A DNA stretch of 62,522 bases, filler included. It is 4 parts of 4 records of this genome, joined end to end, with 100 filler letters (N's around TTAATTAATTAA, not from the genome) between each part and the next. Parts side by side here need not be neighbours in the genome. Positions count along the whole stretch, not along the records: positions 51,287 to 62,522 come from SRR20825006_686; 3 more parts are not named here. The stretch is one strand, 5' to 3'. This document shows, in pieces, positions 51,187-62,522 of the stretch (position 1 is the first letter of the stretch; each line of letters begins with the position of its first letter). A program made the position numbers and the translations under genes. The notes below the pieces were generated by a model. That model worked only from the letters and a program-made list of their open reading frames with translations. It was not told where the DNA came from and searched no databases.

Positions 51187-51286
51187 NNNNNNNNNNNNNN
51201 NNNNNNNNNNNNNNNNNNNNNNNNNNNNNNTTAATTAATTAANNNNNNNNNNNNNNNNNNNNNNNNNNNNNNNNNNNNNNNNNNNN
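51187..51286. other. Artificial contig linker
   Basis: N44-TTAATTAATTAA-N44. Confidence 0.98.
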
Positions 51287-51529
51287 TTCGGGATAGGTAA
51301 AATGCTCGTGCTCCATTAAAAAAGCAACCACATTCCCGCCTTTTCCACTACTAAAATCTTTCCAAATTTGTTTAACGGGGCTTACCATAAAACTTGGTGA
51401 GCGTTCATCTGTAAACGGGCTTAAACCCTTAAAGTTACTCCCCGATTTTTTTAACTGTACAAAATCGCCAATCACCTCCTCTACTCGGGCGGTTTCAAAC
51501 ACTGTGTCTATGGTAGTTTTGGAAATCAA
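51287..51529 (-). CDS. dnaG: DNA primase, N-terminal zinc-binding-domain region (3'-truncated)
   Basis: LKKSGSNFKGLSPF-x-x-ERSPSF-x-VSP..WKDFSSGKGG; TTG start; TATTTTTG -7 element at 51558-51565. Confidence 0.92.
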
Positions 51530-51671
51530 GTTTCGTAAATTATTAGATTTTCTTGTGCAAAAATAAGTATTTAAGCTAAGGTGAAAGTTTAAAGTATTAA
51601 GTTTAAATAATCAGAAGCTAAATAACAATAAATCTTTACTAAAACTAATATCCAATTTTTTGATTGTGTTG

Positions 51672-52058
51672 TTAACTAACTCTTGAAAGCCTCAAAACTT
51701 TTTCTACTTCTACGTCGCATTTCATCGTTTTGGTTTGTCCCATAATAAGTTTTACAACGACGTTTTTTAAATAAGCACGTTTATTATTACCGTAGCGAGA
51801 AATGTAATAATTTTTAAATTTCTCTACCGCATAGTTATCATCAATCTCAATAAATTCAATTGAATCGATGCTGTTATTGAAATTCTCATAATGTGGTGTT
51901 TGAAGGTTTTTATTCTTAGTTAAATCCAATGAAATCAAGTAGTTTTCATCGTCAATATCTTCTACAATATTTTTACAAGAAAAAAAATTTGAAATTTGCT
52001 GTCCTTTTTTTAATTGGATGTTCAGCTTAAGATTTTGTTTACGGAGGTCTCTTTTCAT
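51672..52058 (-). CDS. Hypothetical AT-rich protein
   Basis: 128-aa ORF with an A-rich leader; no motif recognised. Confidence 0.5.
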   Translation of the reverse strand: MKRDLRKQNLKLNIQLKKGQQISNFFSCKNIVEDIDDENYLISLDLTKNKNLQTPHYENFNNSIDSIEFIEIDDNYAVEKFKNYYISRYGNNKRAYLKNVVVKLIMGQTKTMKCDVEVEKVLRLSRVS

Positions 52059-52112
52059 AGTTTTAAAAATTAAGATTGAGAGCGCTCAGTTTTTGTCGAT
52101 TTAAATATAAGC

Positions 52113-52148
52113 AAAAAACCTGCACATTTTAAAAAAATGCACAGGTTT
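52113..52148 (-). terminator. Intrinsic terminator of the ECF operon
   Basis: Minus-strand AAACCUGUGCAUUUU...AAAAUGUGCAGGUUUUUU; the two mismatches form G-U wobbles only on this strand. Confidence 0.8.
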
Positions 52149-52182
52149 AAACAACGAATATTATAAAATTAAAGTGGTTTGG

Positions 52183-53256
52183 CTAATCCATATCAAATCT
52201 TAAACCCAAGGAAACATTACGTTGGTCCAACCCATTGTTTTTGAATATTGTATTTAAATCATATTTTGCATAAAGCGCAACACCCTGCCAGCCTATATAG
52301 CCACTAAGACCGTAGATAAAACTATTTGTGTTGTATTCAGATTTGAGTTTTAATTTTTCATCCTTGCCATTTTCTTCAAACTTTAATTTTTGACGAACTC
52401 CCAAATTTATTCCTGCATAACCACCCAGACCAACTTTTACTTTGTTATTTGTTGAATATCGAAAATAATCGTCGTGCTCAATCTTTTTTGAAGGTCCAAA
52501 CTCAAAGTGCACTGGCACTACCAAATTATCCATTCTAAATTTAGACTTATCCAAATATAAGGGATGTACTTGAAGTTCGGTTTGTTCTCCTGTGTCTACA
52601 AAAAAGCGATTTTCTGTTGGCTTCAACCCATTAAATTGTACGGACAATCCATATTTAAGTCTTAACCAATTGGTATTTTTAAAAACACGTGTTTTCCATG
52701 CCCAACCTATTTCTGCAAAACGACTTCCTGCAACTTTAAAGTCTGAATCTTCCAAAGATTCACCTTCGGCAACCACATTGTTTAAACCAAATGCAAAAAC
52801 AATATCTGAAGTGGTGCGTCGGTCGTATTTGCGTTTCTTATTTTTAGGACCTATGTAAATAACGTTATCATTTTCATTGTTCTTACCCACAGACCCTATA
52901 CTTATAATCAAGCCACTATCTTTATCTTCTTGAATTTTTCCATTTCTTTTTAAAAGCGCAACTTTATTATCTATAATTGCAAGTCTATTCTCAATGTTTA
53001 GTGCATGCTTTTCTGCTGCTGCTTGCTTTAAAGTTTCTGCTTCCGCTTCTGAAATTATTTCATTCTGCAGACGGGCATTTATGTTTTCCACTTCAACTTT
53101 TAACGCATTTTTTTCTTCTTCTATAATTTTTTCTTTTAGTAAAGTGAGCTGTTCCACTGTGGTTTTGGTATCGTGATCCATTTCCTGCGCTGTAGCATAA
53201 AGCGTCCCCAAAAACATAATTGCAAGTGTAATTGTGAGTGTAATTAATGATTTCAT
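52183..53256 (-). CDS. Secreted protein with an N-terminal coiled coil and a probable outer-membrane beta-barrel
   Basis: Signal peptide, coiled coil, alternating aromatic strands ending LGLRFDMD. Confidence 0.7.
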   Translation of the reverse strand: MKSLITLTITLAIMFLGTLYATAQEMDHDTKTTVEQLTLLKEKIIEEEKNALKVEVENINARLQNEIISEAEAETLKQAAAEKHALNIENRLAIIDNKVALLKRNGKIQEDKDSGLIISIGSVGKNNENDNVIYIGPKNKKRKYDRRTTSDIVFAFGLNNVVAEGESLEDSDFKVAGSRFAEIGWAWKTRVFKNTNWLRLKYGLSVQFNGLKPTENRFFVDTGEQTELQVHPLYLDKSKFRMDNLVVPVHFEFGPSKKIEHDDYFRYSTNNKVKVGLGGYAGINLGVRQKLKFEENGKDEKLKLKSEYNTNSFIYGLSGYIGWQGVALYAKYDLNTIFKNNGLDQRNVSLGLRFDMD

Positions 53257-53359
53257 TTTGTTCGATTTTTGATTATTGATGAATTGTGATGAATGATTTT
53301 AATATTGAATAATTGATGTTTAAAAGTGATCAGTAGTAACGTTGATTACGTTACTAGTT

Positions 53360-54133
53360 TTAATTATTTCGTTCTGAAACAGCGGTTCTTATTTTATTAA
53401 AACTCTCGCCAAGGGCATCGAAAACCTTATCCCTAAAGCTTTTTTCAAGCTCCCATTCCACATCCTGCAAAAGTGCTGTGGCATCTACTTTTGGATTGTT
53501 TAAAATTCGTTGCGTTTGGATTTCGCGACGGGCATTGTTTAGTAGCAATTCCACTTCTGTAACTGACACTTCCGCGTTGTTTTCTTTTAACTTTTTTGCC
53601 GATGCTACAACTTCATCAATTTTAGAATTAATAAGAATCTCTTCAGCTGAAAGGGTTCGCGTTTCTTCTACAACAGGTTTTTTCGCTTCTTCGTTTGAAA
53701 CTTTTGCTAAAGGTGACGCGTTTTTAATCTTTTCGGCTATTTCAGATTTCTTCTGAGGTTGTACTTTATAAACGTGTTCTTTTTCGTCAGAATTATCGTT
53801 TTCAACTTTAGACTTATTTTTTTCTTCGGAAGCAATTTCAACTGTCTCATTATTGTTTGAAATTATTTCAGAAGGATTATTTAAAGGCTGCTCATCAATA
53901 GTTTCTTTAACTATTTCAGTATCTACTTCAGAACTGTTTTTATTAATGAAAATTGAAGCCAAAATTAAAAACCCAACAAAACTTGCTGCAATGTAATACC
54001 ATTGTACTTTCTTCTTTTTTGGCTGATTGGCATCCAGTTTTTCTTCCAATTTTTTCCATGCATCCGCAGAAGGCTTTAACTCTCTTGTTTCCAGTTTTTC
54101 ACGCATATTATCTTCTAGTTTAATTGGTGCCAT
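53360..54133 (-). CDS. Putative anti-sigma factor (single TM)
   Basis: PSADAW helix, WYYIAAS TM, charged linker; overlaps the sigma factor stop. Confidence 0.7.
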   Translation of the reverse strand: MAPIKLEDNMREKLETRELKPSADAWKKLEEKLDANQPKKKKVQWYYIAASFVGFLILASIFINKNSSEVDTEIVKETIDEQPLNNPSEIISNNNETVEIASEEKNKSKVENDNSDEKEHVYKVQPQKKSEIAEKIKNASPLAKVSNEEAKKPVVEETRTLSAEEILINSKIDEVVASAKKLKENNAEVSVTEVELLLNNARREIQTQRILNNPKVDATALLQDVEWELEKSFRDKVFDALGESFNKIRTAVSERNN

Positions 54134-54686
54134 AACTTAAATTATTTTGTTTATTGACCCTGTTTTGAAGCATTTTTCGCGCTTTAAAAAGTTGTGTTTT
54201 TGAAGTATTTTCACTTATTTGAAGCAGTTCGCCAATTTCACTGTGTTTATACCCTTCAACCGCATACAACACAAAAACTGTTTTATAACCATCGGGTAAA
54301 CTGTCAATCAATTTTTGAATTTCATTTACTTCAAGCTCCGTTTCAATAAAAGTGGAATGTGCAGCAACATTTTCAATTTCAGCTTCAGAAATAAAATTTA
54401 GTTTTTTGTCCTTCCGAAGTTGAGAAATACTTTCGTTTACCATTATTCTTCGAATCCAACCTTCAAAACTTCCTTCGTTTTTAAAATCTTTTAAATGTGT
54501 AAACATTTTTAAAAACCCAGAAAGCATTACTTCTTCCGCCAAATCGTTATTTTTTAAATACTGTCTGCAAACACCCATCATTTTTGGTGAAAAAAGCTCA
54601 AACAATTGGTGTTGTGCACGACGGTCACCTTTGGACGCCTGAGCAATCAACTTAGAATAATTTTTATGTAACGGTATAATTTTCAA
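54120..54686 (-). CDS. ECF RNA polymerase sigma factor
   Basis: AEEV..GF, FEGWIRRI (region 2); LPDGY..EGYKH-x-EI..TSKTQL-x-KAR (region 4). Confidence 0.93.
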   Translation of the reverse strand: MKIIPLHKNYSKLIAQASKGDRRAQHQLFELFSPKMMGVCRQYLKNNDLAEEVMLSGFLKMFTHLKDFKNEGSFEGWIRRIMVNESISQLRKDKKLNFISEAEIENVAAHSTFIETELEVNEIQKLIDSLPDGYKTVFVLYAVEGYKHSEIGELLQISENTSKTQLFKARKMLQNRVNKQNNLSYGTN

Positions 54687-54719
54687 AATACGCTTCGCTT
54701 TTTAACGCTTCTATTTTAA

Positions 54720-54747
54720 TAGACGCAGGTTTTTGAAATATGGTTGC
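54720..54747 (-). promoter_or_regulatory. Candidate autoregulatory ECF promoter
   Basis: GCAACC-N16-CGTCTA upstream of the sigma gene (AAC/CGT pattern typical of ECF promoters). Confidence 0.65.
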
Positions 54748-54832
54748 CTGAGGTTTAAAAAGTTTGTAATTTTCAGTAGCAATTAACAATTTAAAAGGAT
54801 ATACTCTAACTGCAAACCGAAACTACCTACTG

Positions 54833-55810
54833 CTACTTTTTTCGGTCAATAACATAATTCACCATCAATTCTAACGATTCTTTATACGGTGAGGCTGGGT
54901 AGGTTTCTAAAAGCTGAAGCGCTTGTTGTTGGTATTCCTTCATTTTGGAAACAGCATAATCAAGGCCTCCATTTTCTTTTACAAATGAAATAACTTCGTT
55001 TACGCGTGTTTTATCTTTATTATGATTTTTAACGGAATTGACAAGCCACTTTTTGTCTTCGGAAGTAGCATTATTTATGGAGTATATTAAAGGTAGCGTC
55101 ATTTTCTGCTCCTTAATATCGATGCCTGTTGGTTTCCCAATGTGTTCATTTCCATAATCGAAAAGATCGTCTTTTATTTGAAAAGCGGTGCCAATGAGTT
55201 CCCCAAATTTGCGCATTTTCTCTACTTCTTCATCTGGTGCCATTACAGAACGGGCGCCCATTGCACAACAAGCTGCAATTAAAGTTGCGGTTTTTTGACG
55301 AATTATTTCGAAATAAATTTCTTCTGTAATATCGAGTCTACGGGCTTTTTCAATTTGCAGTAATTCGCCCTCACTCATCTCACGAACAGCAACCGAAATT
55401 ATTTTTAATAAATCGAAATCATCATTATCAATGGAAAGCAACAAACCTTTCGAGAGTAGATAATCGCCTACAAGAACAGCGATTTTATTTTTCCAAAGTG
55501 CGTTTATACTGAAAAAACCGCGACGGCGATCACTGTCGTCTACCACATCATCGTGCACTAAGGTTGCCGTATGTATAAGCTCTATGACGGATGCACCGCG
55601 ATACGTACGTTCGTTAACTTCGCCATTATTTGTCATTTTTGCAATTAGGAATACAAACATAGGGCGCATCTGTTTTCCTTTTCGATTTACTACATAATGT
55701 GTAATTCTATTGAGAAGCGATACTTTGGAAACCATAGAATTGGAGAACTTTTTTTCAAAAAGCTCCATTTCATTTTCAATGGGAAGTTTTATGCGAGATA
55801 CTATCTTCAT
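54833..55810 (-). CDS. Polyprenyl diphosphate synthase (IspB-like)
   Basis: GKQMRP, HDDVVD..RRG, KTA, FQIKDD, GKP-x-G-x-D. Confidence 0.93.
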   Translation of the reverse strand: MKIVSRIKLPIENEMELFEKKFSNSMVSKVSLLNRITHYVVNRKGKQMRPMFVFLIAKMTNNGEVNERTYRGASVIELIHTATLVHDDVVDDSDRRRGFFSINALWKNKIAVLVGDYLLSKGLLLSIDNDDFDLLKIISVAVREMSEGELLQIEKARRLDITEEIYFEIIRQKTATLIAACCAMGARSVMAPDEEVEKMRKFGELIGTAFQIKDDLFDYGNEHIGKPTGIDIKEQKMTLPLIYSINNATSEDKKWLVNSVKNHNKDKTRVNEVISFVKENGGLDYAVSKMKEYQQQALQLLETYPASPYKESLELMVNYVIDRKK

Positions 55811-55817
55811 TAAGGCC

Positions 55818-55825
55818 CAAAGATA
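55818..55825 (-). promoter_or_regulatory. -7 promoter element for the polyprenyl synthase
   Basis: TATCTTTG 7 nt before the ATG. Confidence 0.6.
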
Positions 55826-55933
55826 GTTAAAAATGGATGATGGTTTTAACCCTTTTTTTTGTTGATATTGATGTTTTTTGTAACAGAACTAAGGTTTTTA
55901 TGATTTCTTAAAAATCGCATTTTATTATTAAAT

Positions 55934-55962
55934 AAAAAGAGCAGCAAATTGCCGCTCTTTTT
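55934..55962. repeat. 29-bp terminator hairpin, copy 1 of a direct repeat
   Basis: AAAAAGAGCAGCAAATTGCCGCTCTTTTT; one mismatch to 59606-59634. Confidence 0.9.
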
Positions 55963-55982
55963 ACACTTACATTATCCTTTTA

Positions 55983-58520
55983 TTATGCTTCGGATTTTGA
56001 TTTATTACGATAAAGAGATTTATCTATACAATTCCCCATTTCTACTTTATTTAAAGGCAATCCAATAAATGCTTCAACTTTATTCAGCATCTCTTTTGGG
56101 CTATCCAAGACTTCTTTATAGTCAATATAAATTAACTCTACACCAGGTTCTCTTTCTTTCCAAACTTCAATATGGTTTAACTGCTCTTGATAAGCATTCA
56201 ATAAAGAAATAGGCAACGTATCGGTACGCTTACCAATCATTTTTTGTTGCGATTTTATCACTTCTCCCAAATCACGCTTCATAAAAATTATCTTATACCT
56301 AAATTCGGGATTTATATGTTTTAATAAAGGAGCCACAACCTTTAAAGACTTATTTTGTGCTTTTTGCATCCAAGAATTATCTTTATGCAATGCCATAACT
56401 GGTTCGTACTCGTAATACCCTTTTGGATTTGATTCATCTGCTTCCCTTTTCCCATCAGTAAGGGTATTTACACCTCCTTTATCTAACATTTGCATCATTA
56501 AAGAAGTTCCCGAACGGGGCAAACCAGACACTAAAACAATTTGATTTTCTCTGTACTTTTTTGATTCTTTATCTTTTAATTCGAGTGGATTTAAAAGTTT
56601 TTCTTCAATATTTTCTAGTGCCTTTTCTGCTCTATGATAGGTTTTAGGTTTTAGGCGTTTTGCGGTTTCGTACGCAAGTTTTGCATTCTCTAAATCTCCA
56701 AGTTTTTCTAGTGCTTCGCCAAGTGTGTAATGAGCCTCAGGATAATATTTTACTAACTCAATACTCGTTAAGGCAGTTTCTGCAGCTTCTTCATATTCGC
56801 CCAATCTAACTAACACTTCGGCAAGTCCAGTATGATATTTCGCTCTATCGCTTTCTAGTTCAATTGTTTTTTCAAAAGCATCTCTAGCTTTTTCAAATTG
56901 ACTTGTTCTTCTATAGAGTTTCGCTATTTGAAACCATATTTCGGGACTAGATTTACGTTCTTTTGCATTCATTAAAAGTTCTAAAGCCCCATTTATATCT
57001 CCTTTCCCAAGGAGAATTCGTGATTCAGCAAAATAAGTTGTGTGTTTAAATTCATCATTTAAGCTACGAAGCTTGTCTAAATACTCTTGAGCTTTATCAA
57101 ACTTTGAAAATTTAATTTCAATAGTTAGCAAGTCCATATAATATGGAATTGGGTCAATTGGGTCAGGTTCAAGAATTAATTCTAATAAAATTCTTCGTGC
57201 TTCTTCATAATCTTTTTTACCAAGATACACACGAGCCAAATTATGTTTTAAATCGCATCTGGTTTTTAAAATTGCGTCTTCTATTTTTTCTTCAGGACGC
57301 TCTATATAGCCTAATTCAATTAATTGCTCCATAGTTTCATTGTCGGTAAGTTGATCCGTTTCCCGTTCTTTCGGCAACTCTCCAAAATCTCCACTCTCCT
57401 CATCCCAACTTTTAATATATTGTACTTCTCCTGGGTCTTTAAAAATATCTAAAGCTACTTTTCCGTCCATATCTTCACCCACAGGTAAGCCGTAATGATG
57501 CAAAAGAGTAGGAGCTATATCAATTAAACCTAATCCAAAAATCTTCTCATTCTTCTTAATATTTGGCCCTTTTGCTACAAACATTCCAAATTGTCTGTGT
57601 TCCAATGCTGGAGCAGCAGGATATTTTGGCATTTCCAGAATTCTATTAGCACCAGATTCGTACCCGTGGTCTGAAACTACAACTACTGTAGTATCCTCAT
57701 CAATAAGATCTAACATACGCCCCAGCATCATATCTTGAAACTTATAAGCACCTACAACTACATCTTTATATAATTCATAGTGTCTTAGTGGCACCTCTTT
57801 TAATTTTGGAGGATAGTATTTCATAAAACCGTGACAAAAATGGTCTATCATATCGTAATATACAGCCATGAAATCCCACTCCGTATTCGCCATTGTGTAT
57901 GTTGCAGCAGAATGAACTGAAACGTTTTCAGCGAATATTTTTGAAAATGTTGACAATGACTGATCCTTATCCTGATTTATTTGAGCTGCATTTGGCACAA
58001 AAGGAAGTACGTGCTGACCAGTTACTTCATAAGGACGTAACCTTAAATCTCTTATTTTTTGAACAAATTTTTTCGGATGAATTGTGTCAGGATGTATCGG
58101 ATTCTTTTTTTTTGGATCTTTCTGAATTTTTTGAAATTTCTCAGAAATAACTACCCCATTAATTGGTTCTGCGGGGAAACTAGGCCACCAGCCTACTAAA
58201 TTACTTTTATACCCTTTATTGTGAAGTATATTCCATATTGCTCTTGTTTTTCTAGAGTTTGTAGTTACTGGACGGACACCTTTTAAATCTGGAGCTAATT
58301 CAATAAACCCTAATACACCATGTTTATCTGGGGTTTTTCCAGTTGCAACGCTTGTCCAAAGCATAGGTGAATAAGGTGGGTTCATAGTACTCATGTTGCC
58401 ATACACGCCTTCATCGATTAGTTTTTTTAACGAAGGCATTTCACCTTTTGCTAAAAGAGGTCCAATCATTTTCCAATCTGCTGCATCCCAACCAATTAAC
58501 AATAATTTATTCTTCTTCAT
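55983..58520 (-). CDS. Alkaline-phosphatase-superfamily domain, TPR repeats and P-loop sulfotransferase fusion
   Basis: LLIGWDAADW, PPYSPMLWTS-x-ATG, DHFCH, SDHG (AlkP/NPP fold); TPR array; SGLPRSGTSLMMQML and R-x7-S in MKRDLGEVIKSQ (PAPS-binding motifs). ATG at 58520. Confidence 0.82.
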   Translation of the reverse strand: MKKNKLLLIGWDAADWKMIGPLLAKGEMPSLKKLIDEGVYGNMSTMNPPYSPMLWTSVATGKTPDKHGVLGFIELAPDLKGVRPVTTNSRKTRAIWNILHNKGYKSNLVGWWPSFPAEPINGVVISEKFQKIQKDPKKKNPIHPDTIHPKKFVQKIRDLRLRPYEVTGQHVLPFVPNAAQINQDKDQSLSTFSKIFAENVSVHSAATYTMANTEWDFMAVYYDMIDHFCHGFMKYYPPKLKEVPLRHYELYKDVVVGAYKFQDMMLGRMLDLIDEDTTVVVVSDHGYESGANRILEMPKYPAAPALEHRQFGMFVAKGPNIKKNEKIFGLGLIDIAPTLLHHYGLPVGEDMDGKVALDIFKDPGEVQYIKSWDEESGDFGELPKERETDQLTDNETMEQLIELGYIERPEEKIEDAILKTRCDLKHNLARVYLGKKDYEEARRILLELILEPDPIDPIPYYMDLLTIEIKFSKFDKAQEYLDKLRSLNDEFKHTTYFAESRILLGKGDINGALELLMNAKERKSSPEIWFQIAKLYRRTSQFEKARDAFEKTIELESDRAKYHTGLAEVLVRLGEYEEAAETALTSIELVKYYPEAHYTLGEALEKLGDLENAKLAYETAKRLKPKTYHRAEKALENIEEKLLNPLELKDKESKKYRENQIVLVSGLPRSGTSLMMQMLDKGGVNTLTDGKREADESNPKGYYEYEPVMALHKDNSWMQKAQNKSLKVVAPLLKHINPEFRYKIIFMKRDLGEVIKSQQKMIGKRTDTLPISLLNAYQEQLNHIEVWKEREPGVELIYIDYKEVLDSPKEMLNKVEAFIGLPLNKVEMGNCIDKSLYRNKSKSEA

Positions 58521-58659
58521 CAATCTTTGTTTTTTGTAATTCGTTTCTAACTTTTCTCCATTCTCGCAAACCAATATCACCTAAAGCTAAGAGACCTAAC
58601 GATCCCTCAATAGTTATTTCTGCTGGAACACCAGTAGTCGAACAATTCTTATTTTTCAT
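58507..58659 (-). CDS. Unannotated 50-aa peptide resembling a free-standing PEP-CTERM-like sorting segment
   Basis: MKNKNCSTTGVPAEITIEGSLGLLALGDIGLREWRKVRNELQKTKIDEEE*; A-rich leader; overlaps the start of the fusion gene by 14 nt. Confidence 0.72.
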   Translation of the reverse strand: MKNKNCSTTGVPAEITIEGSLGLLALGDIGLREWRKVRNELQKTKIDEEE

Positions 58660-58757
58660 AAATTTTTGGGGTTTTGATAATAAAGTTATATTTTTATAAG
58701 CGAATTTAATATTAATAAAGTTCTTATTTTGGATTGAACTTAAACATGCCCTAAATT

Positions 58758-59585
58758 ATGAAAAAAAATACACAAAAATCATTTAACAAAAGAATGGCAT
58801 CATACGGTGCTTTAGCTCTTGCAATTGCTGGAGTTTCTGATGCTACAGGACAAATTGAATATACAGATGTTGATCCTGATGAAGTATTAACAGGAACAAG
58901 ATTTCTACTAGACTTAAATGGAGACTCTGTTACAGATTTTGAAATTAGTAATGACGGCGCATTCTCTGGAGCAACTCCTGGAACAACTGCACGAGTATAT
59001 ACGTCAAACTATGGTTCTATCTTAGGGATGAATGGCGGAAACTATAACTATCCTTTCGCTTTAAGTGAGGGTGATCTTATTGATGAAACTCAATTAACTT
59101 GGATTACAAATTCAAACTACCAAACATTAAACTGGATGGGTTGTGCTTATACCAACAGCCAATGGTGTGATGGGCAAGTAGATAAATATTTAGGTCTACG
59201 TATTAGTATAGGTTCCGATCAATATTATGGATGGGTAAGATTAGATGTTCCTGCCGATGCTTCAAGCATAACTGTTAAAGATTATGCCATCAATACTGTT
59301 GCAAATGAAGGAATAGAAGCTGGAGATATGGGGTCTACTGCTGGAGTAGCTGATAATAACTTTGAAGGTTTTAAACATTTTGTTTCTAACAATCAATTAA
59401 ATCTTATTGCAAATACCTCAATGGAAAATGTTTCAATCCATAATTTACTTGGACAGCAAGTTATTTCTGAAAAGCTTTCAAGCAATAATGAAACAATTAA
59501 CCTTTCAGGATTACAAGCTGGTGTTTATATTACCGCTGTAACAATTAATGGAACTACTAAGACAGTTAAAATCATAAAAAACTAA
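58758..59585 (+). CDS. T9SS-secreted protein with a type A C-terminal sorting domain
   Basis: Long signal peptide ending ATG-Q, DLNGD-x-x-x-DF, KYLGLRI..YYGWVRL, C-terminal NLLGQ..L-x-x-GVY..TVKIIKN. Confidence 0.85.
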   Translation: MKKNTQKSFNKRMASYGALALAIAGVSDATGQIEYTDVDPDEVLTGTRFLLDLNGDSVTDFEISNDGAFSGATPGTTARVYTSNYGSILGMNGGNYNYPFALSEGDLIDETQLTWITNSNYQTLNWMGCAYTNSQWCDGQVDKYLGLRISIGSDQYYGWVRLDVPADASSITVKDYAINTVANEGIEAGDMGSTAGVADNNFEGFKHFVSNNQLNLIANTSMENVSIHNLLGQQVISEKLSSNNETINLSGLQAGVYITAVTINGTTKTVKIIKN

Positions 59586-59602
59586 TTTACTTTTTTAGTT
59601 TA

Positions 59603-59637
59603 TAAAAAAAGAGCGGCAAATTGCCGCTCTTTTTTTA
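59603..59637. terminator. Bidirectional terminator, copy 2 of the direct repeat, overlapping the rlmN stop codon
   Basis: TAAAAAAAGAGCGGCAAATTGCCGCTCTTTTTTTA between convergent genes. Confidence 0.9.
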
Positions 59638-60675
59638 TTGTTTATTTGCTAACTGTCCGCAAGCAGCATCTATATCTTTTCCACGGCTTCGGCGCACAGT
59701 TACCGGAATTCGGTCGTGTTCTAATGCCTGAAGGTAATCATCAATTGCTGTAGTAGAAGCTTGTTGGAAGTGGCCATCATCAATTGGGTTGTATTCAATA
59801 ATATTTACTTTACAAGGCACGTATTTGCAAAAAGTAACAAGCGCCTCAATATCCGCCCATTTATCATTTATACCTTTCCAAACTATGTATTCATACGTTA
59901 TTTTACGCTTTGTTTTAGCGTACCAATACTCTAATGCTTCCCGAAGATCTTCTAATATAAAACTCTTTGCAAAAGGCATAATTTGTTCACGTGTTTCTTG
60001 AATTGCAGAATGTAAGGAAACAGCAAGATTAAATTTCACTTCGTCATCAGCCAGTTTTTTAATCATTTTTGGCACACCAGAAGTAGAAACTGTAATTCGC
60101 TTTGGTGACATACCGAGCCCTTCATCTGAAGTAATTTTTTCAATGGATGCCAATACGTTTTTATAATTCATCAACGGCTCTCCCATTCCCATAAAAACAA
60201 TGTTTGAAAGTGGCTTATCGTGATACAATTTACTTTCGCGATCTATCGCAACTACTTGGTCGTAAATTTCATCTGGGTTTAGGTTGCGCATTCTTTTTAG
60301 TCTAGCAGTTGCACAAAAAGTGCAATCCAAACTACAACCCACTTGTGAAGAGACACAGGCAGTCGTTCTTTTTTTTGTTGGAATTAAAACCGATTCAACC
60401 ACCAGGCCATCATGAAGTTTTACGGCATTCTTAATGGTACCATCATTACTTTTTTGAAGATGATCAACTTTTATATGATTAATTACAAAGTTTTCATTTA
60501 AATGCGCCCGAGTTTCTTTTGATATATTAGTCATATCATCAAAACTATGACTGCCTTTACTCCAAAGCCATTCGTAAACTTGCGTTCCGCGGAAAGCTTT
60601 ATCACCAATACTCTCAAAAAAACTTCTCAGTTCTTCTTTTGAAAGCGCTCGTATGTCTTTTTTTTCTGAAACCAT
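59635..60675 (-). CDS. rlmN: Dual-specificity RNA methyltransferase RlmN
   Basis: CVSSQVGC-x-x-x-C-x-x-C, MGMGEP, IDAACGQL. Confidence 0.97.
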   Translation of the reverse strand: MVSEKKDIRALSKEELRSFFESIGDKAFRGTQVYEWLWSKGSHSFDDMTNISKETRAHLNENFVINHIKVDHLQKSNDGTIKNAVKLHDGLVVESVLIPTKKRTTACVSSQVGCSLDCTFCATARLKRMRNLNPDEIYDQVVAIDRESKLYHDKPLSNIVFMGMGEPLMNYKNVLASIEKITSDEGLGMSPKRITVSTSGVPKMIKKLADDEVKFNLAVSLHSAIQETREQIMPFAKSFILEDLREALEYWYAKTKRKITYEYIVWKGINDKWADIEALVTFCKYVPCKVNIIEYNPIDDGHFQQASTTAIDDYLQALEHDRIPVTVRRSRGKDIDAACGQLANKQ

Positions 60676-60679
60676 GGCG

Positions 60680-60687
60680 CAAAATTA
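60680..60687 (-). promoter_or_regulatory. -7 promoter element for rlmN
   Basis: TAATTTTG-CGCC-ATG. Confidence 0.65.
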
Positions 60688-60705
60688 CCATATTTTAAAG
60701 TAAAT

Positions 60706-60733
60706 AGCCTCTTTTCTTTTCAGAATAGAGGCT
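60706..60733 (-). terminator. Probable terminator after the protease gene
   Basis: AGCCTCTTTTCT-TTTC-AGAATAGAGGCT hairpin. Confidence 0.6.
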
Positions 60734-60759
60734 TTACTTAATTTAGAATTATGGTTGAT

Positions 60760-62418
60760 TTATCGTTTAATGATTATTTTCTTGGTGACAGAGTCATTGC
60801 TATCCTCATCTACCAAATGAAGAAAATAAACTCCTTCTGAAAGATTTTCAACTGCAATAGCATTCATTGTATTGGACAATGAACCTGAATGAATACGCTG
60901 CCCTAAAGCATTTGTAAATTGGTATGACAAATGTGGATACCTATTATTCATCACAGTAATATTGGTATTTGCAGGATTCGGATAAATTTTAAGATCCCCT
61001 ATCAATTGAAAATCAGGCAAGTTTAGTAAATTTTGAAGTGTTTCAATAGTGGTTTGTCCTGTGTTTAAAGGATCTAACCAATCCACTAGTCTGGTATCTG
61101 GTGTGTTTCCACCATTCCAGGAAACACCAAACCTTCCATAAATATCGTAGTCCTTATTATTTTCATAACCATCACAAGCTGACTGGCCTGCATATAGTTG
61201 ACCAATTATTCTTCCGTTTTCATTAAAAAGTGGAGAGCCAGACGAACCACTTTCTGTAGTTCCAATTTCCCATCCATCTCCTGTACCGTGTGCTCCACCT
61301 CCAATAAGCCAAACTTGTGTGCCGTTGGCATCATCTTTTTGCGCACCAGAATCATCACGAGCTATTTTCATGATATCGCCATTGGGATGATGTATTCCCA
61401 CTTCAAACTGCGGATTAGCATCAGAGTTATCCCAACCTGCAAAAGCAACATCCCAGGATTCTGGAATGGGGTCAAAAAGTTTTACCAATGCAAAGTCACT
61501 TTGACTATTTCTTGCTTTCAATTCTGCACCACTAATAGTAAAATTTGTTTGTATGTTTCCACTTTCGCCTTCTGTACCACAGACAGGTGTTGGGCTTACC
61601 CAATTAAATCGAATTGTCCAAAGTGCAGGATTGCTGTTTTCCAAACAATGGTTTGCCGTTAATAAATAAGGGGTTTTATCGTTTTTAGTATTATTAGTAA
61701 GAGCTGCGGAACATAAATGACCGTTTCCTAAGTTCAAAAGCGCCACTGCTTTTTTCACTAAATCTTTTTTAGAATCAAAATCATTTCCGATAGCACAGTT
61801 TACATCATAATTACAATCTCCAGAATCGTTAATTCCGCGATTATCATCAAATAACGTATTCACTCTTCCCATTCTATACCCATGAATAACGTTATTCACC
61901 TGAAGTCTCGGCGATGCTGTACTTTGCGGTGGCTGATAGTATTCTATCCAAATAATATCTCCTTCCACAAACCAAGTACCTAATTGACCTGCTTCTCTAT
62001 TTTGATTACTTGTAAATGTTGACGAAATATCGGTACGGTCGTTATTATAAAGTTGAAGTCTGGAACCTAAGGGTAGAAAAAAATCATCGAAATTCACACT
62101 TAAATTTAAAGCTCCAGATGATTGAATAGTTGCTCTCCATATTTTTCCGCCATTTGGCAAGTTTGTCCAGAGGCCACCAGTTTGCATATTTAAATTAACC
62201 TGCCTCTGAATACCATAACGCCATGGCATAGATTTATCCAAATCGTTTATACTATCCTGTAGCCTAATTTTATCGAAATCTAAACTAGGCAGTTTAATTA
62301 TTTTAGGAACTTCATCTAAATATAAATCCCAGCTTTCTGGCGTATCATTTCCGCCACCTTGCGAAAAGGCAGTAAAAAAAGTAACACATAAAATGAATAA
62401 AAGTGTAATTTTCTTCAT
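60760..62418 (-). CDS. Lysyl-endopeptidase-like trypsin-fold serine protease with a T9SS CTD
   Basis: Signal peptide and pro-region, LTANHC, SDFAL, GSSGSPL, IYPNP, L-x-x-GVYFL, KKIII. Confidence 0.9.
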   Translation of the reverse strand: MKKITLLFILCVTFFTAFSQGGGNDTPESWDLYLDEVPKIIKLPSLDFDKIRLQDSINDLDKSMPWRYGIQRQVNLNMQTGGLWTNLPNGGKIWRATIQSSGALNLSVNFDDFFLPLGSRLQLYNNDRTDISSTFTSNQNREAGQLGTWFVEGDIIWIEYYQPPQSTASPRLQVNNVIHGYRMGRVNTLFDDNRGINDSGDCNYDVNCAIGNDFDSKKDLVKKAVALLNLGNGHLCSAALTNNTKNDKTPYLLTANHCLENSNPALWTIRFNWVSPTPVCGTEGESGNIQTNFTISGAELKARNSQSDFALVKLFDPIPESWDVAFAGWDNSDANPQFEVGIHHPNGDIMKIARDDSGAQKDDANGTQVWLIGGGAHGTGDGWEIGTTESGSSGSPLFNENGRIIGQLYAGQSACDGYENNKDYDIYGRFGVSWNGGNTPDTRLVDWLDPLNTGQTTIETLQNLLNLPDFQLIGDLKIYPNPANTNITVMNNRYPHLSYQFTNALGQRIHSGSLSNTMNAIAVENLSEGVYFLHLVDEDSNDSVTKKIIIKR

Positions 62419-62494
62419 TCGAATAACTGAATATATTTCAATAGACTAATATATATTTTTATTTTGACATTTGAAAACCAAACGCTTGGAAAAT

Positions 62495-62522
62495 AAAAAA
62501 TCCCGATATATCGGGATTTTTT
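62495..62522. terminator. Bidirectional-type terminator of a gene outside the window
   Basis: AAAAAATCCCGATATATCGGGATTTTTT palindrome. Confidence 0.75.

Follow-up and report, generated by a model that had tools for sequence, protein, structure and literature searches.

Why should a large enzyme without a signal peptide be encoded together with a 50-residue open reading frame (ORF) and a protein equipped for secretion? The question is raised by one locus in the window, the 62,522-nucleotide stretch of DNA analyzed here as a whole, within the part that comes from SRR20825006_686. A preliminary description had presented this locus as a self-contained three-gene unit with a 98-bp divergent gap and matching terminators at its ends, and all of these elements are present. 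The 50-aa ORF does overlap a multi-domain enzyme, by 14 nt, and the alkaline phosphatase (AlkP), tetratricopeptide repeat (TPR), and sulfotransferase domains of the latter are matched by family models. The third gene encodes the secreted type IX secretion system (T9SS) cargo that had been described, with the strings YTSNYG, GGNYNYP, NSNYQ, and CAYTNSQWC in place and matches to PF18962 and TIGR04183.

We find that the three genes form a recurrent unit in Bacteroidota and that, in other phyla, the enzyme adjoins small secreted proteins ending in PEP-CTERM-class sorting tails. The reading that we favor, tentatively and at somewhat below an even chance, is that a cytoplasmic enzyme handles or modifies a secreted precursor before export by docking on a sorting-tail-like helix, which is supplied in trans in Bacteroidota and in cis elsewhere. 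Signals for C-terminal sorting, among them PEP-CTERM and the T9SS C-terminal domain (CTD), are treated as envelope-side signals; here, a probably cytoplasmic enzyme is genetically tied to small secreted proteins bearing such signals across at least five phyla.

Recurrence of the gene trio in Bacteroidota

In a profile search, the gene for the 50-aa protein, hereafter the miniprotein, lies on the same strand as the enzyme gene and directly upstream of it in 59 of 62 Bacteroidota loci, or 59 of the 59 that can be assessed, as the three misses (L042, L052, and L067) begin inside the enzyme gene. The profile was built from translated-search matches, and the matches in L033 and L047 come from outside its training set. 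Cargo homologues accompany the enzyme in 56 of the 62 loci, and all six misses are cut by a contig end on one side. The cargo gene is divergent and upstream in most Flavobacteriaceae, lies downstream and in the opposite orientation in Psychroserpens, Winogradskyella, and Mesoflavibacter, and forms same-strand downstream tandem arrays of 3–6 paralogues in Chitinophagales and Bacteroidia metagenome-assembled genomes (MAGs). Two complete triads stand in tandem in L017 (L017:1294-8496) and inverted in L046 (L046:6-8529), with enzyme paralogues 62–64% identical to the query. The miniprotein subtypes differ between the paired triads (LALGD.GL versus LAYGD.AF), which hints at paired specificity.

Genome G040 is the only one of 41 Flavobacteriales genomes found to have the full-length enzyme, and likewise the only one with the cargo N-domain or the miniprotein; there, the miniprotein is on a different contig from the other parts. 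Of 401 genomes sampled from the phylum, seven show the AlkP domain at E ≤ 1e-30, one of them (G077) through a 26%-identical paralogue, and five show the miniprotein at E ≤ 1e-10, all of these five being enzyme-bearing and having the miniprotein directly upstream of the enzyme. The upstream miniprotein is thus found in five of the six orthologue-bearing genomes, and none of the enzyme-less genomes has it at that threshold. A Pfam scan of 26 upstream ORFs from Chitinophagales and others revealed no further conserved partner gene. The co-occurrence elsewhere on which the preliminary description had staked its proposal is borne out by the neighborhood comparison: because the trio is found again in different orders and has been duplicated as a whole, its association is more than chance, and a recurrent unit extending well beyond Flavobacteriaceae synteny is supported. 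A Flavobacteriaceae-type triad was also seen in a record labelled Candidatus Paceibacteria (L054), with polyprenyl synthase and sigma-factor neighbors at 84% identity; this is probably a mis-binned contig.

Miniprotein, enzyme, and cargo

The miniprotein ORF is open in every locus where it was found. Conservation concentrates in a central core, in which Ala25, Gly27, and Trp34 are invariant and Ser20, Leu21, Gly22, Leu24, and Arg35 are at least 90% conserved, and the flanks of the core vary. A database search returned 1106 proteins at E ≤ 1e-3, without Pfam families and named hypothetical save for a single UniRef entry, a 'PEP-CTERM sorting domain-containing protein'. A separate search gave 896 cluster representatives, 193 of them at E ≤ 1e-10; the best 150 of the 896 span 41–118 aa and include no fused form. 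Judged by its sequence, the 50-aa ORF represents a real, unannotated miniprotein family. In Chitinophagales, the miniprotein gene lies 90–260 nt upstream of the enzyme gene and does not overlap it, so the overlap in the window is incidental. In three loci of this order, a ~1000-aa protein bearing a type B (CHU_C) T9SS signal is encoded just upstream of the miniprotein gene (L069:24-3119, L071:2419-5625, and L084:36-2927).

No Pfam family matches the window miniprotein, none of 47 miniproteins matches the PEP-CTERM (TIGR02595) or PID-CTERM (NF046080) models, and no family came up at E ≤ 10 for the miniprotein of the window or for two members from Chitinophagales. Sub-threshold matches to other sorting-signal families occur in a few miniproteins, PFE-CTERM accounting for 4 of 47 (best E 0.025). 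The core sits in an uncharged run with a median length of ~9–10 residues (9–16) versus 17 (16–30) in 14 real tails, and charges fall within the run itself, with Asp in Flavobacteriia and Tyr-Lys in Chitinophagales. A basic cluster (W-R-K/R) follows the core. The N-terminus is Lys-rich and not signal-like, and the protein stands alone rather than forming the C-terminal end of a protein with a signal peptide. The miniprotein thus appears too charged to span a membrane, and the membrane tether first envisaged is unlikely. Against enzyme-less genomes, the miniprotein profile gave weak matches in four; those of G332 are PID-CTERM proteins (NCBIfam, 44 bits), and so, by eye, are those of G360. At L111 and L115 (G332:C6) and L113 (G360:C5), clusters of two to three ~65-aa proteins consist of a signal peptide, a PID-CTERM, and little else, and a TGA codon lies within some of these mini-protein matches.

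The set from outside Bacteroidota comprises 14 loci from Planctomycetota, Acidobacteriota, Verrucomicrobiota, Pseudomonadota, and a Victivallales fragment. A stand-alone miniprotein was found in none of the 14 loci. In 9 of the 13 that were searched, the enzyme adjoins 200–400-aa secreted proteins that match the cargo profile (E ≤ 0.02, best 1e-25), and at L076 and L083 the small neighbors have tail-like ends and no significant domain match. The neighboring secreted proteins end in PEP-CTERM-class tails: TIGR02595 scores over its cut-off in four of seven tested, and PF07589 matches neighbors at L072, L074, and L087. The miniprotein profile matches exactly these tails (E 0.002–0.08 in a small database), and an hhalign comparison of 47 miniproteins with 14 tails gave a probability of 87.7% (E 3.4e-6) over 29 columns. 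What stands of the initial label 'PEP-CTERM-like' is this resemblance to the neighbors' tails; membership in the modelled families does not. The preliminary description had also brought up PEP-CTERM-tailed YGW-motif proteins in other phyla, which would make the present locus a split version, and the enzyme indeed adjoins homologous small secreted proteins with such tails. The distribution of fused (other phyla) and split (Bacteroidota) forms follows the type of sorting signal and supports the 'split' idea. A Pfam scan of 85 neighborhood ORFs outside Bacteroidota found no other conserved partner.

The enzyme shares 96% identity with an 'alkaline phosphatase family protein' from Aequorivita sp. 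Q41. We place its start at the internal ATG given in Table 1 because homologues measure 841–847 aa and align from residue 1–5. Across 39 homologues, residues Asp12, Thr45, Ser51, Asp226, His230, Asp284, and His285 of the AlkP domain are invariant; from structures of nucleotide pyrophosphatases/phosphodiesterases (NPPs), we take them to be the metal ligands and the Thr/Ser nucleophile. Equally invariant are Gly666, Pro668, Arg669, Ser670, Gly671, Thr672, and Ser673 in a loop of the sulfotransferase domain, presumably the phosphosulfate-binding (5'-PSB) loop, and Arg749 and Ser757, presumably the 3'-PB motif. By model and residues, the first domain belongs to the AlkP superfamily type I phosphodiesterase/NPP family (PF01663) and, by model and motif, the last to the sulfotransferases that depend on 3'-phosphoadenosine 5'-phosphosulfate (PAPS; PF13469 / PF00685). 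With intact motifs in both catalytic domains, the enzyme looks active. It has no signal peptide, and its N-terminus starts at the conserved first strand; the use of PAPS implies the cytoplasm, where the enzyme probably resides. PAPS is available in module-bearing genomes because adenosine 5'-phosphosulfate (APS) kinase is present, but the kinase also occurs in module-less genomes and is non-discriminating. Sequence searches of the PDB returned TPR proteins only for the whole-enzyme profile, cytosolic sulfotransferases for the sulfotransferase domain alone (best E 0.008), and sulfatases for the AlkP domain alone (best E 0.086); with weak matches only, neither catalytic domain has a close solved relative. 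Two variants were seen: at L087, the sulfotransferase is a separate gene, and at G151:C1:404254-407227 the enzyme gene is in three pieces, the third with stops (one TAG, two TAA), next to an open miniprotein gene and an open divergent cargo gene.

Prediction of the enzyme–miniprotein complex gave an ipSAE of 0.84 (0.83–0.84 over three runs) versus 0.00 for the best of three controls, a mark that 51 of 78 solved complexes attained, as did 2 of 108 mismatched pairs. Contact agreement between runs was at least 79%, and the predicted local distance difference test (pLDDT) score of the partner at least 69. On the miniprotein side, the predicted interface is formed by the conserved core (residues 16–32 and 35), with Ala25 and Gly27 at its center making the tightest contacts; on the enzyme side, it is formed by residues 156–173, 200–211, and 261–268 of the AlkP domain, which fall between its nucleophile and second metal site. 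The prediction thus seats the miniprotein core on the AlkP domain's helical cap and not on the TPRs, for which the preliminary description had proposed it as a recognition element. This cap is, by NPP anatomy, presumably where relatives bind substrate. Among 39 enzymes, five of them non-Bacteroidota, interface residues Thr207, Met264, and Met265 are invariant and His170, Pro173, and Arg268 at least 95% conserved. We count the docking prediction as support and not as proof.

The cargo combines a Por_Secre_tail CTD with an N-terminal signal peptide, as expected of a T9SS type A cargo. AlphaFold2 models are confident, with a pLDDT of 87.7 for the whole protein and 92.6 for the N-domain, and the CTD superposes on the RemA CTD (8gl6_D; Z 11.9, root-mean-square deviation (rmsd) 1.5, 73 residues). 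Structural comparison of the N-domain puts seven Bacteroidota proteins of the HmuY-like or DUF4466 kind on top, as weak matches (Z 5.2–6.7), followed by FHA domains (Z ≤ 4.4). Foldseek against the PDB returned CTD matches only for the whole cargo and none at E ≤ 1e-3 for the N-domain alone, and in the ESM Atlas the N-domain found only Bacteroidota clusters without names (scores 0.81–0.84). Tyr16, which lies within the signal peptide (K.L..Y[GS]A; window 58800-58805), is the sole invariant column among 65 homologues. A Tyr or Phe recurs at this place in the PEP-CTERM versions from other phyla, an unusual conservation for a signal peptide. Six homologues of the cargo domain, from 6 of 16 enzyme-less genomes that carry it (L118-L123: G135, G327, G259, G355, G203, and G093), are lipoproteins with a Cys after the signal peptide and no C-terminal sorting signal. 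For this reason, we take the enzyme to accompany C-terminally sorted forms only, and the lipoprotein form, read from sequence, to be a third anchor type for the N-domain.

A proposed pre-export role and its alternatives

In the reading that we favor, the enzyme would be a cytoplasmic, bifunctional protein uniting an AlkP-superfamily phosphoesterase, a TPR array, and a PAPS-type sulfotransferase. The miniprotein, soluble and ~50 aa long, would have as its core a de-hydrophobized look-alike of an exosortase-type sorting tail and, seated on the AlkP cap, would serve as a docking handle or small subunit. The small secreted β-sandwich proteins encoded alongside, one or more per unit, would exit through Sec and then the T9SS, and the enzyme would engage their precursors ahead of Sec export to O-sulfate them and/or to carry out a phosphoester step. 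The binding site for the sorting-tail-like helix would either take part in precursor engagement or activate the enzyme. In Planctomycetota, Acidobacteriota, Verrucomicrobiota, and Pseudomonadota, this helix would be the cargo's own PEP-CTERM tail, acting in cis; in Bacteroidota, where the T9SS domain takes the C-terminus of the cargo, it would be supplied in trans by a separate gene. A further part of the precursor, perhaps its conserved signal-peptide region, may be bound by the TPRs. It is also conceivable, if on balance doubtful, that exosortase-type tails are read in the cytoplasm: the AlkP cap would then be a receptor for PEP-CTERM-like helices, by means of which the cytoplasmic phosphoesterase/sulfotransferase seizes selected secretion substrates before they cross the membrane, and the tail would have been kept as a free, soluble miniprotein subunit once the substrates moved to the T9SS in Bacteroidota.

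Several points weigh against a pre-export role. On its own, a trans-acting tail cannot recruit the cargo, and the model needs a second contact, perhaps of the TPRs with the cargo. The chemistry and the action of the enzyme on the cargo are inferred. The mature cargo has no Ser, Thr, or Tyr conserved across its 65 homologues. The cargo domain occurs in 16 of the 394 enzyme-less genomes of the 401-genome sample, so the fold does not need the enzyme. At L013, in Aequorivita sp. Q41, the cargo gene has TGA for the GGA of the window (Gly25, in the signal peptide; L013:5692-5694, minus strand), reflecting either a pseudogene or a sequencing error, and the miniprotein and enzyme are intact despite it. 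Genome G115 has the enzyme and a downstream cargo-like gene with no detectable miniprotein. Mean conservation of the predicted interface does not exceed that of the remaining AlkP domain (0.71 versus 0.70), the complex was folded without alignments by a tool whose calibration excluded short peptides, and the hhalign match covers a short Gly/Leu/Ala-rich stretch whose composition could have inflated it.

The enzyme could instead act on a non-protein acceptor, such as a surface glycan, a lipid-linked sugar, or an anchor glycolipid, with the secreted neighbors as clients and the miniprotein or tail only regulating or localizing it. Sulfotransferases and AlkP-type enzymes often act on sugars and lipids, which speaks for this alternative, as do the lack of a conserved modifiable residue in the mature cargo and a GT2 glycosyltransferase near one locus (L073). 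The T9SS and exosortase routes are, moreover, both thought to end at surface glycoconjugates, according to two papers (PMC7468200, PMC10936215). We nevertheless consider a non-protein acceptor unlikely: no conserved glycan-synthesis, flippase, or export gene accompanies the enzyme in any group, conservation in its neighborhood is limited to the cargo and the miniprotein, and the helix site predicted in the AlkP cap would fit a peptide ligand better than a pure regulator. A small gene directly upstream of a modifying enzyme, and overlapping it in the window, would also suit a miniprotein (elsewhere, a cargo tail) that is itself the substrate, phospho- or sulfo-modified like ribosomally synthesized and post-translationally modified peptides or like RaxX by RaxST, and with a role of its own. 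The predicted seat of the core in the AlkP cap region, the at least 90% conserved Ser20, and a terminal Tyr beside acidic residues in some members also speak for a substrate. That it is quite unlikely follows from the conserved part being the predicted interface, with both flanks variable, from the absence of a conserved Tyr, and from the acidic C-terminus being forced by the 14-nt overlap with the Lys-rich start of the enzyme and missing from members whose genes are separate; nor do peptidase or exporter genes recur in the neighborhood.

Very improbable, in our view, is a miniprotein acting as membrane-inserted sorting-signal substrate or tether of exosortase F (XrtF). XrtF is present in the genome of the closest relative (TIGR04128, 164.5 bits), the miniprotein profile also finds PID-CTERM mini-proteins, and one UniRef member is named a PEP-CTERM protein; XrtF substrates in Flavobacteriia are described as unknown and expected to be unlike PEP-CTERM (PMC10936215). 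But the miniprotein has no signal peptide, a Lys-rich N-terminus, and a shorter uncharged run than real tails have (median ~9–10 versus 17). XrtF is found in 23 of 23 genomes of one module-less genus and above cut-off in 29 of 41 genomes overall, against 1 of 41 for the module; being present with and without the module, it does not discriminate. One module-bearing Chitinophagales genome (a MAG) gave no exosortase match. It is scarcely credible, finally, that the genes have no functional link, the small ORF being spurious or a leader and the adjacency inherited synteny. The whole neighborhood is indeed syntenic within Flavobacteriaceae (S1 peptidase, rlmN, triad, ispB, and sigma factor), but the association survives gene-order changes between orders, duplication of the triad, and unlinking in G040, all of which contradict this explanation. 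The ORF is, furthermore, conserved at the protein level across classes, as the 193 cluster representatives at E ≤ 1e-10 attest, and no Rfam family lies in the region.

If the pre-export role is correct, it would assign a function to an unannotated miniprotein family of at least 896 clusters and to a widespread 'alkaline phosphatase family protein' fusion, and would make pre-export sulfation or phospho-modification of surface proteins testable in the abundant marine Flavobacteriaceae, Saprospiraceae, Planctomycetota, and Verrucomicrobiota. Cytoplasmic reading of tails would, if true, extend C-terminal protein sorting by a cytosolic step of recognition and modification and provide a naturally occurring case of a sorting signal that has become a small protein subunit. 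The fused-versus-split pattern could be used to look for further proteins that bind sorting tails.

Locus layout and comparison with known systems

The features of the locus are collected in Table 1. The 25-nt cores of the two hairpins differ by one base, and their pattern occurs at no other site in the window and in none of 100 shuffles. The terminator scan detected only the hairpin at the cargo end, that at the enzyme end having come from a repeat search. The closest relative (L013) has the matching pair as well; in other genera, the terminators at the two ends differ, so we regard the match as a local feature and not as part of the module.

Table 1. Coordinates of the three-gene locus, its domains, and its flanks in the window.
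Feature	Position	Strand	Remarks
Enzyme ORF	55983-58580	(-)	likely ATG at 58520, giving 845 aa (55983..58520)
AlkP-type phosphodiesterase domain	~residues 1-420 (57261-58520)		PF01663 (Phosphodiest) 102.7 bits, cut-off 23
TPR region	~residues 430-650 (56571-57233)		several TPR families
Sulfotransferase domain	residues 655-845 (55986-56558)		PF13469 (Sulfotransfer_3) 44.9 bits, cut-off 27; PF00685 31.1 bits, cut-off 22
Miniprotein ORF, 50 aa	58507-58659	(-)	14-nt overlap with enzyme start
Miniprotein conserved core	~residues 12-38		P.EGSLGLLALGD.G..WRK.R
Divergent intergenic gap	58660-58757		98 nt
Cargo ORF, 275 aa	58758-59585	(+)	signal peptide and T9SS type A CTD
Cargo signal peptide	~residues 1-31		signal-like N-terminus by sequence reading
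Cargo β-sandwich N-domain	residues 30-195 (58845-59342)
Cargo T9SS type A CTD	residues 211-275 (59388-59582)		PF18962 (Por_Secre_tail) 34.9 bits, cut-off 27; TIGR04183 44.4 bits, cut-off 23
Terminator-like hairpin after enzyme stop	55933-55963		inverted repeat, 15-nt arms, 93% complementary
Hairpin terminator between convergent cargo and rlmN	59602-59638		18-nt arms, 100% complementary; 17-pair stem, then T-run
Polyprenyl synthase gene (ispB)	54833-55810	(-)	flank of three-gene unit
rlmN	59635-60675	(-)	other flank of three-gene unit

The rlmN and polyprenyl synthase genes lie 55–81 nt apart in five Flavobacteriaceae genomes without the enzyme, and the triad is placed between them in 34–40 other loci; the three-gene unit is an insertion between two housekeeping genes. 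RlmN of the genus used for comparison is 78% identical to that of the window, versus 98.6% in Aequorivita sp. Q41, so this genus serves only as a module-less reference and is silent on close kin. Contigs of runs X5 and X6, both from one sample, begin at 58702 with a loose, adaptor-like end, which we take to be a cDNA template-switch oligo; this suggests a transcript 5' end at 58702(+), 56 nt ahead of the cargo ATG. None of the sequencing runs carrying this region is labelled as RNA. Upstream of it are TTG at 58666-58668 and TATATTTT at 58687-58694, whose spacing presumably fits the Bacteroidota promoter consensus. A sigma-70 promoter scan was uninformative (12 found versus 16.4 expected), and Rfam gave no match at the gathering score over the whole window, so the region upstream of the enzyme is no known RNA element. 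Outside the triad, a 552-aa trypsin-like serine peptidase with its own T9SS CTD (60760-62418, minus strand) adjoins rlmN and is syntenic in 24 loci at >50% identity. The GC content of the window is 0.50–0.52 over ~34–51 kb versus 0.33–0.42 elsewhere, with switch points near 33.9 kb and 51.3 kb; the high-GC block carries an lptF/lptG-lptD-surA-pdxA-rRNA dimethylase cluster and other housekeeping genes. The window thus looks composite, and a public contig of 11,244 nt coincides with 51279-62522; the locus therefore lies on an 11.2-kb Aequorivita-like piece attached to DNA from elsewhere, which probably accounts for the distance between this part and the genus used for comparison.

The literature covered, with subscription journals and ~1.7 million further PMC articles outside it, returned nothing on the fusion enzyme, the miniprotein, or PID-CTERM. 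We rate the module as lying outside the known kinds of system and infer its function. The miniprotein is like PEP-CTERM and PID-CTERM signals in the succession of Pro, an acidic residue, Gly/Ser, a Gly/Leu/Ala-rich stretch, and then Trp/Arg/Lys. Unlike them, it is a stand-alone protein of 41–118 aa, without signal peptide or cargo; it has charges inside the 'membrane' stretch, none of 47 members reaches any sorting-signal model, and it is predicted to bind a soluble enzyme. In Xanthomonas, the small peptide RaxX is Tyr-sulfated by the adjoining PAPS sulfotransferase RaxST and then exported. The module shares with this pair a small gene adjoining a sulfotransferase gene and, as its proposed logic, cytoplasmic modification before export; it differs in that the miniprotein lacks a conserved Tyr in the acidic context typical of RaxX, the enzyme has an extra AlkP domain and TPRs, and a folded secreted protein is the third partner.

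The T9SS type A CTD is recognized by the translocon and removed by PorU. That of the cargo is of the known kind, superposing on the T9SS-bound CTDs of RemA, RemZ, FspA, and NucA (Z 9.8–11.9), but no known T9SS cargo in the literature searched has a dedicated cytoplasmic enzyme and miniprotein. The N-domain has a weak structural similarity to HmuY-like lipoproteins (HmuY, PinO, Tfo, BfrB/C, and DUF4466; Z 5.2–6.7, 109–123 residues, rmsd 3.5–4.3). HmuY is lipidated, and the six enzyme-less homologues are lipoproteins as well. The similarity is tempered by Z values below 8, by the lack of Foldseek matches at E ≤ 1e-3, and by the absence of a conserved haem-holding His/Met pair among 65 sequences. 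In the naming of NCBIfam, 'choice-of-anchor' denotes one domain found with different sorting signals. The cargo N-domain behaves likewise, occurring with a T9SS CTD, with PEP-CTERM tails, or as a lipoprotein; in contrast to these families, it is matched by none of the named models, and two of its three anchor types come with a dedicated enzyme.

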